45,546 nucleotides of DNA from Candidatus Woesearchaeota archaeon (lineage in GTDB: Archaea; Nanobdellota; Nanobdellia; Pacearchaeales; GW2011-AR1), in contig CAYHBQ010000001.1 of NCBI GenBank assembly GCA_964354995.1, positions 727-46,272 on the forward strand. Direction: 5' to 3'. Below are positions 36,735-45,546 of this stretch, piece after piece (the stretch's first letter is position 1; each line of letters starts with the position of its first letter). The translations under genes were made by a program, and so were the position numbers. Under the pieces are notes generated by a model. That model did not search any database and had not been told where the DNA came from. It was given only the letters and a program-made list of their open reading frames with translations.

Positions 36735-37061
36735 CTAAGAAAAAGACTGTTCGGTAAAAATAAAAGTAAAATCTTTTCCGAACTGCGATGCAAGTCCCGC
36801 AGCTGATTCTTCCGCCTTCTTTTCTTCAGCAGGTGCCGCAGCCTCAGGCGCAGCAGCTCCGCCAGCAGCAGGTGCCGCAACAGCAATCTGTGCGTTAGCG
36901 AGTTCCGTTGCAATATCAACACCGTGTAAGCTTGCAATAAGCGTCTTGACTTTAGCTTCGTCAACATGAGCTCCAGCGGCCTCGATGACTTTCTTCAAAT
37001 GAGTCTCATCAACTGGCTTGCCAAGCTTATGAAGTAACAAAGCTCCGTAAATATATTCCAT
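36735..37061 (-). CDS. rpl12: Ribosomal stalk protein P1 (aP1/L12e) with 13 extra residues after the conserved GL..FG tail
   Basis: MEYIYGALLLHKLGKPVDETHLKKVIEAAG, then an Ala/Pro/Glu hinge, then AGLASQFG-KDFTFIFTEQSFS. Confidence 0.88.
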   Translation of the reverse strand: MEYIYGALLLHKLGKPVDETHLKKVIEAAGAHVDEAKVKTLIASLHGVDIATELANAQIAVAAPAAGGAAAPEAAAPAEEKKAEESAAGLASQFGKDFTFIFTEQSFS

Positions 37062-37846
37062 TATATGCCCTCCTTTATCATGTTTTGAATAGCCTTTTCA
37101 TGTGTACTCGCCTTAGCAATAAAGTACTTGATGGTCTGATCCGTGTAATAATCTCGCCCTACCGCAAATCCGACGGCCTTTCTAATAAGCTCTCGTAACT
37201 CATTGAGTGTGCCTTCCTTATCAATACGTATACCCGCATATACCTTATCATCCTTTCCATCATAGGCTGCAAGCGGAATAAATCCTACTTTCATAGGGCT
37301 CACACCCAATTTACCAAGTACGCTTGCAACATTTTCTTTTATCGCCTCTCCTTTCTTGGCCACAATCGCACCTTTGATAATTTCTAATTTTCCTTCTTTA
37401 ACGGCCACCTTTAATCCTGCCCCTGAAAGTTCAGATATCGCTGGACCAGGGACTAAATCAGTAGGCCCAGCCGGAATTTCAATATCTTCAAGGGCAATAT
37501 CGCCCGCACGAGCTTTACTCGGAATTTGATTATCTGATAAAATGCCCGAGAGCGCAAATGCATCTTCCTCTGAGAAGAAAAAGGCAATGTCTGCTGTTAA
37601 TTGCGATTTAAGTTCGATGATTCCGCCTTTACCGATGAGTTCAATGGCGCGAATCGCTGCATTTTTCTTAACCATAATAACATCGGCAGTTCCTCGCAGA
37701 CTCTTTTTAATTGCATGAAACTGCGAGCTAGGCAATCCCTTACACGACGCGATAAGCGTGGTACGAGATTTCTTCATGCGTTCAGCAAGCTTCTTAACAA
37801 GCTCTACTTTTCCTTTAGGGACAGGTTTTATACGTTGGCGAGTCAT
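37061..37846 (-). CDS. rplP0: Ribosomal stalk protein P0 (uL10), short form (261 aa) without acidic hinge or C-terminal tail
   Basis: N-terminal uL10 domain and archaeal insertion domain (EDIEIPAGPTDLVPGPAISELSGAGL). Ends at ...KAIQNMIKEGI. The stop overlaps the P1 ATG (TAATG). Confidence 0.85.
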   Translation of the reverse strand: MTRQRIKPVPKGKVELVKKLAERMKKSRTTLIASCKGLPSSQFHAIKKSLRGTADVIMVKKNAAIRAIELIGKGGIIELKSQLTADIAFFFSEEDAFALSGILSDNQIPSKARAGDIALEDIEIPAGPTDLVPGPAISELSGAGLKVAVKEGKLEIIKGAIVAKKGEAIKENVASVLGKLGVSPMKVGFIPLAAYDGKDDKVYAGIRIDKEGTLNELRELIRKAVGFAVGRDYYTDQTIKYFIAKASTHEKAIQNMIKEGI

Positions 37847-38460
37847 AGACTTTCGACCTTAATAGGCGCCCCCATAGTGAGTTTAATCATAACCTTGCGT
37901 ATATTCTCTTTTTTAGCTGGCAACACGTTAACGATATCATTGTAGACCGTTCGAATATTCTGAGCAAGGTGCTCATCGCTCATGGTCTCTTTTCCGATTG
38001 CAATACGGATAGCCGGTTCTTTCGCTTTGATCTTAATCGATTGAGAAATGCGTGCGAGCAGTGCTTTAATCGCTTCAGGAGTTTCTTGCATAAGGACTCC
38101 CAACTGCGGAGTCGGCATTTTACCTGTCGGCCCAAGGGACTTACCGAATGCAGTTGCAACGGCCGGCATGACCTTCGCACTTGCAATGAAGAAGTCATAA
38201 TCCCGTACGAGTAACTTAAGCGCTTTTTTATCTTTATACTTATCAAATTCTGCTTTCATCACAGTTTTGACAAGGTCGCTCTTATTTTCAAGAAACCCAC
38301 ACACGCGCTTCTCAGAGAAAACATGAGGAATTGTGCTCACCACGTTAACGCTATCGCGTCGCATGTCCATTCCCTTTAAACTGATAAGTAAATCAACTGT
38401 CTGTTCGAACTTTCGTTTGTCTCCCTTGCGGATTTCTTTAAGTGCGTTTTCGAGTTCCAT
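37843..38460 (-). CDS. rpl1: Ribosomal protein uL1
   Basis: KRKFEQTVDLLISLKGMDMRRD...PTGKMPTP. Confidence 0.92.
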   Translation of the reverse strand: MELENALKEIRKGDKRKFEQTVDLLISLKGMDMRRDSVNVVSTIPHVFSEKRVCGFLENKSDLVKTVMKAEFDKYKDKKALKLLVRDYDFFIASAKVMPAVATAFGKSLGPTGKMPTPQLGVLMQETPEAIKALLARISQSIKIKAKEPAIRIAIGKETMSDEHLAQNIRTVYNDIVNVLPAKKENIRKVMIKLTMGAPIKVESL

Positions 38461-43025: not shown

Positions 43026-44123
43026 ATGGCATTAAGTATTGAAAAAAGAGGGCAGACGACGGCGCATCCGCTCGATAAAGAACTCGAAACGTTAATACAG
43101 AATCAGGTTTCTCGAATAAAAGTAGTAGGGTGTGGAGGCGGAGGAGGCAATTCAGTATCTCGTATGAAAGAAATCGGAATTAAGGGATGCGAGGTTGTCG
43201 CGCTCAATACCGATGCACAGGATCTCTTGTACGCTAACGCTGACCACAAAATTCTCATCGGTCGCGAATTAACGCATGGTCTTGGAGCAGGGAGCAATCC
43301 GAAAATAGGCGAGGAAGCCGCTCGCGAATCGGAGCAAGAAATTCGAAAAAGACTTTCGAATAGTGACTTAGTTTTCATCACGTGCGGGCTCGGCGGAGGC
43401 ACCGGAACCGGAGCAGCACCCGTAGTCGCGGATATAGCTAAAAAACAAGGGGCACTTACCATCGGTATTGTTACACTGCCTTTCACAGTAGAGGGTCAAA
43501 AAAGAATAGAAAATGCGCAGTATGGGCTTGAACGTATGGCGGAGATTGCAGACACACTCATAGTTATCCCCAATGACAAATTGCTCGAACTTGCGCCCGA
43601 ATTGCCTCTGCATACGGCATTCAAGGTGGCAGATGAGATTTTAACGAACTCTGTGAAGGGAATTGCAGAACTCATTACTACTTCAGGTCTCGTTAACCTT
43701 GATTTCGCAGATGTAAAAGCAGTCATGTCAAACGGAGGGGTGTCTTTAATTGGCATTGGCGAGTCTGATTCTGCAACGGGTCGGGCTGAAGAAGCAGTAG
43801 AACGAGCGATTGATAACCCGCTCCTCAACGTCAATATTAGAGAAGCAAAGGGGGCACTTATTAACATCATTGGGGGTCCTGACTTGACACTCGAAGAATA
43901 TAAGACAGTTATGGAAATTATCGGCAATCGCATAGCCCCCGATGCTAAAATAATTTCGGGCGCCCAAATTTCTGCAGATATGGAGAAATCAATAAAAGTA
44001 TTGCTAATAGTCACGGGAGTCAAAAGTGCGCAGATTCTTGGTTCAGGCGGAAATGATTTATCAAAGAAAACCGAATCGGAATTGCAAGATGAGCTCGGTA
44101 TAGACTTTGTTGACGACGAGTAA
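43026..44123 (+). CDS. ftsZ: Cell division protein FtsZ
   Basis: VVGCGGGGGNSVSRM and the tubulin signature GLGGGTGTGAAPVVA. Confidence 0.95.
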   Translation: MALSIEKRGQTTAHPLDKELETLIQNQVSRIKVVGCGGGGGNSVSRMKEIGIKGCEVVALNTDAQDLLYANADHKILIGRELTHGLGAGSNPKIGEEAARESEQEIRKRLSNSDLVFITCGLGGGTGTGAAPVVADIAKKQGALTIGIVTLPFTVEGQKRIENAQYGLERMAEIADTLIVIPNDKLLELAPELPLHTAFKVADEILTNSVKGIAELITTSGLVNLDFADVKAVMSNGGVSLIGIGESDSATGRAEEAVERAIDNPLLNVNIREAKGALINIIGGPDLTLEEYKTVMEIIGNRIAPDAKIISGAQISADMEKSIKVLLIVTGVKSAQILGSGGNDLSKKTESELQDELGIDFVDDE

Positions 44124-44153
44124 CTTTAAAAACCACAGTCTACTAATGCGCGC

Positions 44154-44333
44154 ATGAAAGAAAAAATAAAATCTTTTCTGATTCAATGTAATCGTGTTTG
44201 GCGCGTCTTACGAAAGCCCTCTGGAATAGAATATAAAACCATTACCAAGGTCGCAGCGCTCGGACTACTCGCGCTCGGACTACTCGGATTTGTTATCTCG
44301 TTAGTCGTGAAAGAGCTTGTTCTTAACGCATAA
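44154..44333 (+). CDS. secE: Protein translocase subunit SecE (Sec61 gamma), 59 aa
   Basis: Own translation: MKEKIKSFLIQCNRVWRVLRKPSGIEYKTITKVAALGLLALGLLGFVISLVVKELVLNA. It sits in the conserved position before spt5. TTTAAAAA lies 21 nt upstream. Confidence 0.8.
   Translation: MKEKIKSFLIQCNRVWRVLRKPSGIEYKTITKVAALGLLALGLLGFVISLVVKELVLNA
44256..44285 (+). repeat. Perfect 15-bp tandem duplication (GCGCTCGGACTACTC x2) inside the SecE TM helix
   Basis: Units at 44256..44270 and 44271..44285. They encode ALGLL-ALGLL in frame. Confidence 0.9.
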
Positions 44334-44400: not shown

Positions 44401-44886
44401 ATGATTTTCGTTATAAAGGTAACCACAAACAAGGAAGAGAAAGCAGTTGAAATGATTACTGACCGTGCTCAAAAAAAACAATTGAACGTGTTCGCGGTCG
44501 TCCGTCCTCACGGGTTGCGAGGATATGTCCTACTTGAAGCGGCCGACCGGGATTCTGCCGAAGAGTCTGTATTTAATTTACCGTACGTAAAAGGTATTAT
44601 CGGCAAGACCCTTGTCTACGATGAAATAAAAAACATGGTACAACCAGAGGTAGAAGATTATAATATCGAAGTAGGAGATATTGTCGAAATGATTGCAGAT
44701 TTGTTCAAAAAAGAGAAAGGAAAAGTATTGCGTGTTGATAAACAAAAACGAGAAGTCGTTGTTTCGCTCCTTGGGGCAGCAGTACCTATTCCGGTAACTG
44801 TAAAAATGGATAACATAAGAGTTATAAGGCGTGAAAACGAGCCCGAAAGTACTGACGCGGAGGAAAAAACAAATGCCCGTGATTAA
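44401..44886 (+). CDS. spt5: Transcription elongation factor Spt5 (NusG)
   Basis: NGN domain MIFVIKVTTNKEEKAV...GYVLLEA and KOW EVGDIVEMIADLFKKEKGKVLRVD. Confidence 0.88.
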   Translation: MIFVIKVTTNKEEKAVEMITDRAQKKQLNVFAVVRPHGLRGYVLLEAADRDSAEESVFNLPYVKGIIGKTLVYDEIKNMVQPEVEDYNIEVGDIVEMIADLFKKEKGKVLRVDKQKREVVVSLLGAAVPIPVTVKMDNIRVIRRENEPESTDAEEKTNARD

Positions 44887-45546
44887 ACTCATTGTTGAAG
44901 GAGGGGCCATGAAGCCCGGACCAGCCGTAGCTCAGCAATTAGGTCCTCTCGGTATCAATCTGGGAAAAGTAATCTCAGACGTAAACACCGCGACAGCAGG
45001 ATTCAAAGGTGTCAAAGTCCCCGTTGAAATCGATGCAAATGCAAAAACGAAGCAATTTACCATAAAAGTATTCTCACCTCCCGTGGCCGAGTTGCTTAAG
45101 AAAGAGTTAGGTCTTGAGAAAGGATCAGGCTCTCCCAAGGACACGAAGGTAGGTAACTTGGCTATAGAGCAAGTTATTGCAATTGCTCAAACGAAGTTGC
45201 CCAACATGCTTGCTCGAGATTTGCGTGCCGCCGTTAAACTTGTGGTAGGAAGTTGTGTTTCACTGGGAATTATGGTTGAAGACAAACAGGCGAAAGACAT
45301 AGAACGAGATATCGACGCGGGATTGTACGACAAAGAACTAAAATCGGCTAAGACAGAAGTTTCTGCCGAAAAGAAAGCACGTCTTTCATTAGCATTCGCA
45401 TCGGTCAAGAGCCAGCAGGAAGCTAAAGCGAAAGCCGCTGAAGCTGCCAAGCTTGCTGAAGAAGCAGCCAAAGCCGCAGCAGCCGCAGCGACGCCAGCCG
45501 TAGGAGCAGCACCAGCTGCAGGAACACCAGCAGCCGCAGCGACGCC
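44873..45546 (+). CDS. rpl11: Ribosomal protein uL11 with a long Lys/Ala then Ala/Pro/Thr-rich C-terminal extension; open at window end
   Basis: Own translation: MPVIKLIVEGGAMKPGPAVAQQLGPLGINLGKV...GSCVSLGIMVEDKQAKDIERDIDAGLYDKELK, then SAKTEVSAEKKARL...AKAAAAAATPAVGAAPAAGTPAAAATP. Not in the track because there is no stop in the window. Confidence 0.85.
   Translation, partial: MPVIKLIVEGGAMKPGPAVAQQLGPLGINLGKVISDVNTATAGFKGVKVPVEIDANAKTKQFTIKVFSPPVAELLKKELGLEKGSGSPKDTKVGNLAIEQVIAIAQTKLPNMLARDLRAAVKLVVGSCVSLGIMVEDKQAKDIERDIDAGLYDKELKSAKTEVSAEKKARLSLAFASVKSQQEAKAKAAEAAKLAEEAAKAAAAAATPAVGAAPAAGTPAAAAT
45477..45546 (+). repeat. Direct repeat of 19 nt (CAGCAGCCGCAGCGACGCC) with 51-nt period inside the uL11 extension
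   Basis: Copies at 45477..45495 and 45528..45546. This implies a 17-aa repeat unit (AAAATPAVGAAPAAGTP) that may continue past the window. Confidence 0.7.

Follow-up and report, generated by a model that had tools for sequence, protein, structure and literature searches.

The ribosomal protein uL11 (rpl11) encoded at the very end of a 45,546-nucleotide stretch of DNA from Candidatus Woesearchaeota archaeon (the window, G000:C1:727-46272, meaning the whole stretch that was analysed) continues past its canonical core into a C-terminal arm of about 80 residues. A predicted long α-helix, a disordered Ala/Pro-rich linker and a Lys-rich tip make up the arm, which recurs throughout the sampled archaeal class. 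In our judgement this is probably a lineage-typical structural or tethering arm, and not a stalk tail as an earlier reading of the same letters had proposed (hereafter the original prediction). uL11 is universal and is found at the GTPase-associated centre, the docking site of elongation and initiation factors and the binding site of thiopeptide antibiotics; in archaea the length of the protein is otherwise very constant at ~160 residues. A selectively maintained arm of 80–100 residues, present class-wide, would set the ribosomes of these uncultured small-genome archaea apart, at a functional centre, from all archaeal ribosomes solved so far.

Canonical uL11 core and the point where it stops

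The window protein is a genuine archaeal uL11, belonging to a Pacearchaeota-type member of the Nanoarchaeota (DPANN). Its open reading frame (ORF) begins with an ATG at position 44873 (MPVIKLIVEGG...) and gives 224 amino acids up to base 45546, where the window and contig C1 end together. Pfam places Ribosomal_L11_N (PF03946) at residues 4–62 (E = 1.7e-17) and Ribosomal_L11 (PF00298) at residues 68–134 (E = 2.4e-20), both above their gathering scores. The archaeal equivalog model of NCBIfam, NF002232, is matched with 184.7 bits (cut-off 162), with residues 3–160 covering model positions 5–162 of 164. Residues 1–160 are in this sense a full, high-scoring member of the canonical archaeal family, including the ...GxYD.. 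helix. The solved archaeal proteins find their counterparts within the same range: Pyrococcus furiosus L11 (164 aa, PDB 4v6u chain BH) aligns to residues 3–160 only, Methanocaldococcus jannaschii L11 (161 aa, 5col/5d8h) to residues 3–157, and Haloarcula marismortui L11 (162 aa, 1s72) to residues 4–154. Whereas canonical archaeal uL11 stops 2–10 residues past GxYD, the window protein runs on for ~80 residues in its full form, of which at least 62 lie inside the window. The original prediction had set the canonical end near residue 165 and counted at least 60 further residues in a frame still open at the window edge. Both statements agree with the models and the solved structures, which stop at ~160, and the peptides that it quoted are present in the ORF.

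No other Pfam or NCBIfam domain was found in the arm when the whole protein was searched at E-values up to 0.1. A match to GltJ (E = 0.0012; 18 bits, cut-off 450) is compositional. The family NF011111 (PRK14539, "50S ribosomal protein L11/unknown domain fusion protein") likewise combines L11 with extra C-terminal sequence. Still, the window protein is not a member, scoring 57 bits over residues 3–190 (cut-off 310). A Foldseek search of the AlphaFold2 (AF2) model described below against the PDB returned core-only uL11 matches, including archaeal, eukaryotic and organellar ribosomes, and solved uL11 structures have no counterpart of the arm.

The missing 3' end was read in a relative of the same genus, G005, whose uL11 is 98% identical in protein and carries many synonymous differences (synonymous divergence, dS, ~0.5 in the core); this divergence identifies G005 as a lineage of its own, distinct from the strain of the window. 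Here the uL11 ORF sits inside a contig (C12) and passes the point where the window stops, adding 18 codons (...AAAATPAKAADAKTEAKPAAKKK, then the stop codon) to a total of 242 aa. Its tip reads PAKAADAKTEAKPAAKKK up to the stop, i.e. it ends in KPAAKKK, and all eight other genomes of the genus likewise end in PA(A)KKK. In the genome of the window itself (661 kb in 43 contigs, 91% complete, ~43% GC), uL11 is single-copy, with one match in the whole genome, and no continuation of the ORF was found in the other 42 contigs by k-mers or among Ala/Pro-rich contig ends.

Anatomy of the arm

The AF2 model was computed for the monomer from an alignment of 59 homologues, the first row of which (P0002) has 14 extra N-terminal residues and hence a numbering shifted by +14. 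The core (residues 1–160) folds as expected. Residues 179–219 in P0002 numbering, equivalent to 165–205 of the window protein, form an uninterrupted helix with a predicted local distance difference test score (pLDDT) of ~70, and linker and tip (206–242) are disordered with pLDDT 35–41. The helix begins at a conserved capping motif, KTE.S.E, and the linker that follows it comprises ~30 residues before the Lys-rich tip.

Among the 59 homologues, which are 63–86% identical, the positions K167, K168, L171, Q182, K187, A188, A192, A195, E197, A198, A199, K200, A202 and P208 as well as the terminal KK are invariant or nearly so. Several of them fall on one helix face, where L171-F175-V178-Q182 is followed by A188-A192-A195-A199-A202 (i, i+4, i+7 and so on) to give a continuous stripe. 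This Leu/Phe/Val-to-Ala stripe may be read as a packing seam. Long E/K/A-rich helices that stand alone, as this one does in the monomer model, are familiar from single α-helices and rigid helical spacers, i.e. ER/K motifs and EAAAK-type linkers. Unlike these, the arm helix has the conserved stripe, which suggests that it packs on a partner instead of forming a free spacer.

The DNA of the linker has a GC content of 62.5%, compared with ~43% for the genome. The exact 19-nt word CAGCAGCCGCAGCGACGCC occurs in two copies spaced 51 nt apart. The original prediction had described a 51-nt DNA repeat; the spacing stands, but there is no array. Only two 19-nt copies exist, Tandem Repeats Finder reports nothing beyond weak 9- and 18-nt periodicity, and in G005 the sequence continues into unique DNA after the second copy. 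The latter copy is the likely reason for the assembly break.

Distribution and two arm architectures

Within the order, a uL11 match was obtained in 41 of 41 relatives, with open frames of 211–276 codons. A sample of the phylum (301 genomes, all from one class) contained a match in 294 genomes, and among the matches listed the open frame reached at least 209 codons in 147 of 150. The comparison of uL11 lengths between relatives that the original prediction had suggested gave an extended protein in 68 of the 69 complete sequences from the class (159–263 aa, median 240 aa). The only armless one among them belongs to G129 (159 aa). All genome sets are samples, in which "not found in those searched" differs from "absent". 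Close homologues are annotated simply as "50S ribosomal protein L11" from "Nanoarchaeota archaeon", "Candidatus Pacearchaeota archaeon" or "Candidatus Nanoarchaeia archaeon". Searches of the available literature for a uL11 extension in DPANN, Woesearchaeota and Pacearchaeota returned no description, and uL11 is not mentioned in a 2026 preprint on insertions in universal proteins of DPANN archaea.

Two architectures can be distinguished. The type A arm, found in the window and several other families, consists of the helix, a low-complexity string of Ala, Pro, Glu and Lys, and a K-rich end. The type B arm, found in many other, Woesearchaeota-like families (loci L073-L102), starts with a KTELSAEE cap, continues as a longer ER/K-rich helix and ends in a knob that is followed by a short tail. 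The knob is a conserved small helix-loop-helix (GKE..IKAKL.EAGIP..II.ELLP) in the place where type A has its Ala-rich helix and Ala/Pro linker. Both are attached at the same site on uL11, and the type B end is usually K-rich as well. Alignment of the two types with hhalign gave 98% probability over the first 45 columns. The homology of these proximal 45 residues marks the arm as an old class trait with a variable distal part, and an arm of ~80 residues was probably ancestral to the whole class. The window protein has the features common to both types, namely the KTE.S.E cap and a long helix right after GxYD. Over all 69 complete sequences, the last 10 residues carry a net positive charge in 53, and at least two of the last three residues are K or R in 52.

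Selection on the arm

Comparison of the window with G005 revealed five synonymous and no non-synonymous differences in the helix, and six and none in the linker, i.e. 11/0 over the whole arm. When ten genus-level and near-genus sequences were pooled, the ratio of non-synonymous to synonymous change (pN/pS) rose from 0.20 in the core to 0.29 in the helix and 0.41 in the tail, rough figures as synonymous sites are near saturation. As judged from these substitution patterns, the arm is under purifying selection. Moreover, the arm is found in frame within long contigs of many independent assemblies (e.g., G004 C1 at 375 kb and G005 C12). Together, the two observations make an assembly artefact and neutral read-through, both discussed below, very unlikely.

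Proposed working of the arm

How a structural or tethering arm might operate can be sketched from its anatomy. The conserved bulky-hydrophobic-to-Ala stripe indicates that the helix is probably docked along a partner rather than standing out as a free rod. This partner would be a neighbour at the stalk base, such as P0, the C-terminal domain of uL11 itself, or rRNA helices H42–H44. The linker would then serve as a flexible hinge from which the basic tip sweeps around the GTPase-associated centre, with a reach of up to ~10–15 nm (41 helical residues at 0.15 nm plus ~30 extended residues). Possible weak electrostatic contacts of the tip are with RNA, either rRNA or an incoming tRNA, or with the acidic P1 tails. 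A recruitment of translational GTPases in the manner of the P0 and P1 tails is not expected, as the arm has no hydrophobic GLxxLF(G) motif. In this specific form, with a docked helix and a tethered basic tip, the model is a tentative proposal, and it is clearly less secure than the general assignment as a lineage-typical arm.

Several points weigh against the assignment or narrow it. Confidence in the arm helix is intermediate (pLDDT ~70, predicted template modelling score 0.47) and comes from a monomer model, and the last 18 codons of the gene in the window are taken over from G005. The knob replaces the Ala/Pro linker in many other families, so that the distal part may lack one single function, and a basic tip is common and not universal, 16 of 69 tips being neutral or acidic. 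Finally, the binding partner of the seam and the tip, as well as the place of the arm on the ribosome, are pure inference.

A shortened P0 and the possibility of compensation

uL11 is located next to P0 at the stalk base (PMC9932298). As stated in the original prediction, P0 (uL10) of the window lacks hinge and tail. The protein of 261 aa aligns to residues 8–253 of the P0 proteins of P. furiosus and P. horikoshii (339 and 284 aa, respectively) and has neither helix III nor a hinge nor a C-terminal factor-binding tail. Its C-terminal end comprises LNELRELIRKAVGFAVGRD, a YYT loop and DQTIKYFIAKASTHEKAIQNMI, and the chain stops right after the second spine helix. A YPT loop has been described between helices I and II of P0 (PMC3616719). 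The P0 comparison (loci L033-L062, L103-L123) showed that spine helix III, hinge and tail are also missing from most of the order, where the majority of P0 proteins end at 260–276 aa or have acidic tails that lack the motif. Elsewhere in the class, P0 usually has three helices and is still tail-less. Long acidic or K/E-rich tails lacking the motif occur in some P0 proteins, up to 469 aa. A canonical P0 tail was identified in G022 within the order (...AGAGLASLFG) and in G041, G105 and G245 within a 20-genome sample of the class. In Pyrococcus each ribosome bears seven tails, the canonical archaeal number, of which P0 supplies one (PMC7768734). Two sites for P1 dimers and a tail-less P0 would give four tails instead of seven here. 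The combination of the arm with a P0 devoid of helix III and tail suggests a stalk with fewer factor-binding tails and one new appendage. These lineages would accordingly serve as a natural experiment that asks what number of stalk tails a ribosome requires and which other parts the stalk base can accommodate.

The best-placed competitor of a lineage-typical arm is a loose compensation, in which the floppy tails of uL11 and P0 act as partly interchangeable, motif-less "bristles" of an entropic or electrostatic kind, one lengthening when the other is lost. Across the 44 genomes of the order with both proteins, uL11 and P0 lengths are anti-correlated (Spearman rho -0.35), and phylogenetically independent contrasts, computed on a tree of the uL11 and P0 cores, gave r = -0.40 (one-sided sign-flip p ~0.01). 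The pattern is most pronounced in a sub-clade of 16 genomes (r = -0.73), seen among the loci of the order-level relatives G009-G023, G071, G146, G288, G319 and G338. In this sub-clade, a uL11 of at least 226 aa with an Ala/Pro linker always occurs with a P0 of at most 279 aa, and a uL11 of at most 219 aa always with a P0 of at least 281 aa that has an acidic tail (canonical in G022). Conversely, this sub-clade was chosen after the data were seen and is the source of the signal. For the remaining 28 genomes r is 0.05, sign tests on independent pairs do not reach significance (p 0.25–1), and the class-level sample yields rho = -0.14. Chemically the two tails differ as well, being strongly acidic in P0 but neutral and tipped with basic residues in uL11. 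The apparent trade-off in tail length is accordingly treated as a lead and not as a finding, and compensation as an explanation of the arm appears rather unlikely.

A more encompassing scenario would extend this lead to a rebuilt stalk base in Nanoarchaeia. P0 would have lost its tail repeatedly, and in this order helix III too. The ancestral uL11 arm would serve as a flexible, mostly basic tether that captures acidic P1 tails or tRNA–factor complexes near the GTPase centre, and the uL11 and P0 tails would trade off in length. This scenario is somewhat less probable again than compensation by itself.

Neutral read-through, extra-ribosomal roles and a relocated stalk arm

The arm could also be a neutral low-complexity addition that arose when the stop codon was lost as the rpl11–rpl1 cluster broke, the appended sequence having drifted ever since. 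Such an origin would fit the co-occurrence of the arm with a separation of L11 from L1-P0-P1, the intact cluster of the armless G129, and the great variation of the distal part in length and composition. It conflicts with the nearly invariant helix register and terminal KK of the 59 homologues, with a pN/pS well below 1 and the lack of non-synonymous differences to G005, and with the retention of the arm in 68 of 69 sequences across the class. Neutral drift is therefore given a very low probability.

A role off the ribosome is marginally less credible still. In composition the last ~15 residues, AKTEAKPAAKKK, are reminiscent of the Lys/Ala/Pro-rich basic tails of the histone-H1 or HU type, and a tip of this kind might bind nucleic acids elsewhere in the cell. 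The basic stretch is very short, though, with a single KKK, and the tips of many lineages are acidic. As the genome has one uL11 gene only, every copy of the protein must also serve the ribosome.

The original prediction itself went further and took the extension for a possible relocated stalk arm. Spelled out, a uL11 segment would have taken over the lost hinge and factor-binding tail of P0 and would recruit aEF1A, aEF2 and aIF5B. Three observations speak for this reading: the truncation of P0, the position of uL11 beside P0, and the linker, which is as rich in Ala and Pro as the hinge of P1. The quoted P1 hinge is present in the P1 gene (36735..37061, minus strand), and in the whole 661-kb genome only two ORFs, uL11 and P1, contain Ala/Pro-rich windows of 30 residues. 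The linker looks like a flexible Ala/Pro-rich P-stalk hinge (pLDDT <50), a resemblance that extends to composition only. As in the hinge and C-terminal domain of P1 and P0 (PF00428, TIGR03685), a flexible Ala/Pro-rich spacer is provided at the stalk base. In the arm, however, the spacer follows a long helix, where the stalk proteins have a dimerisation domain, and unlike the stalk tails, which are acidic and hydrophobic, the arm has no acidic block and no GLxxLF(G), ends in a basic tip and lacks any profile similarity to them.

The ending of the extension in GL..LF(G) had been named as the deciding feature. The G005 orthologue ends in KPAAKKK instead, and GLxxLF(G) occurs in none of the tails of the 69 complete uL11 sequences of the class. 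Pfam detects no PF00428 (Ribosomal_60s) signal in uL11, and when the arm, type A or type B, is compared by hhalign with alignments of the P1 and P0 proteins of the same genomes, the probability remains at 0.6% for P1 and at or below 0.2% for P0. The idea that the type B knob is a fragment of the P1 N-terminal domain (GK....LK..L.AAG-like) was discarded on the former value, and homology of the arm to the P0 spine helices on the latter. Strict complementarity between loss of the P0 tail and gain of the uL11 arm was rejected as well. G022 combines its canonical P0 tail with an extended uL11 of 213 aa, G041, G105 and G245 also have both, and G129 has neither, which shows that the arm is not required to make up for a missing P0 tail and can coexist with one. 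In its strict sense, the relocated stalk arm does not survive this comparison and is highly improbable.

Finally, an assembly artefact or chimeric contig end, to which an ORF running into the contig end within GC-rich repetitive DNA might point, can be dismissed with near certainty because the same in-frame arm recurs in dozens of independent genomes, in the interior of long contigs.

P1, gene order and feature coordinates

The features of the window are compiled in Table 1.

Table 1 Coordinates of uL11, its parts and neighbouring features in the window
Feature	Position	Strand	Remarks
P1 stalk protein, 108 aa	36735..37061	-	PF00428, TIGR03685; Ala/Pro hinge, atypical C-terminus AAGLASQFGKDFTFIFTEQSFS
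P0 (uL10), 261 aa	37061..37846	-	PF00466 + PF17777; N-terminal domain, insertion domain, spine helix I, YYT loop, helix II
uL1	37843..38460	-	PF00687; upstream of P0-P1
FtsZ (365 aa) and 59-aa secE-like membrane ORF	43026..44333	+	upstream of spt5-uL11; both named by eye
spt5/NusG-like ORF	44401..44886	+	3' end overlaps uL11 start
GGAGG, Shine-Dalgarno-like motif	44859..44863	+	9 nt 5' of uL11 ATG, read in sequence
uL11 (rpl11) coding sequence	44873..45546	+	224 codons, 3' end open at contig end; full length inferred to be ~242 aa
Canonical uL11 core, residues 1–160	44873..45352	+	N-terminal domain, rRNA-binding domain, archaeal C-terminal helix ending ...GLYDKELK
Connector and helix N-cap	45353..45364	+	connector residues ~161–164; K-T-E-V-S, from class-wide motif KTE.S.E, in both arm architectures
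Predicted single long α-helix, residues 165–205	45365..45487	+	AEKKARLSLAFASVKSQQEAKAKAAEAAKLAEEAAKAAAAA; AF2, ~41 residues
19-nt word CAGCAGCCGCAGCGACGCC, copy 1	45477..45495	+	exact
Disordered Ala/Pro/Thr/Gly linker, start	45488..45546	+	ATPAVGAAPAAGTPAAAAT...; cut by contig end, 18 codons more to the tip in G005
19-nt word CAGCAGCCGCAGCGACGCC, copy 2	45528..45546	+	exact; ends the contig

The P1 protein of the window deviates from its relatives. All relatives examined end in AAGLASLFG or AAEGLSALFG followed by the stop codon, whereas the window protein ends in AAGLASQFGKDFTFIFTEQSFS. Relative to G005, the 3' end of the gene (36735..36800, minus strand) shows a change of CTC to CAG, which replaces Leu by Gln at one of the conserved hydrophobic positions within the factor-binding motif, and a change of the stop codon TAA to AAA, by which 13 residues are added. 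A terminator-like hairpin that overlaps the end of the gene is changed in both arms, and one of these changes is compensatory, which argues for a real P1 variant and against random error. If real, the variant would leave the organism without any canonical stalk tail.

The usual archaeal L11-L1-P0-P1 cluster is split in the window: L1-P0-P1 occupies the minus strand and lies 6.4 kb upstream of secE-spt5-L11, with the secE-like and spt5-like ORFs immediately 5' of uL11. The armless G129 keeps the contiguous order L11-L1-P0-P1. The arm may have arisen when this cluster broke. Downstream of uL11, G005 encodes a 75-aa zinc-ribbon ORF of the CxxC...CxxC type (L002 1052..1279, minus strand), by eye similar to eL43 (L37Ae), and next to it a coiled-coil ORF. 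The same two genes probably follow beyond the contig end of the window, too.

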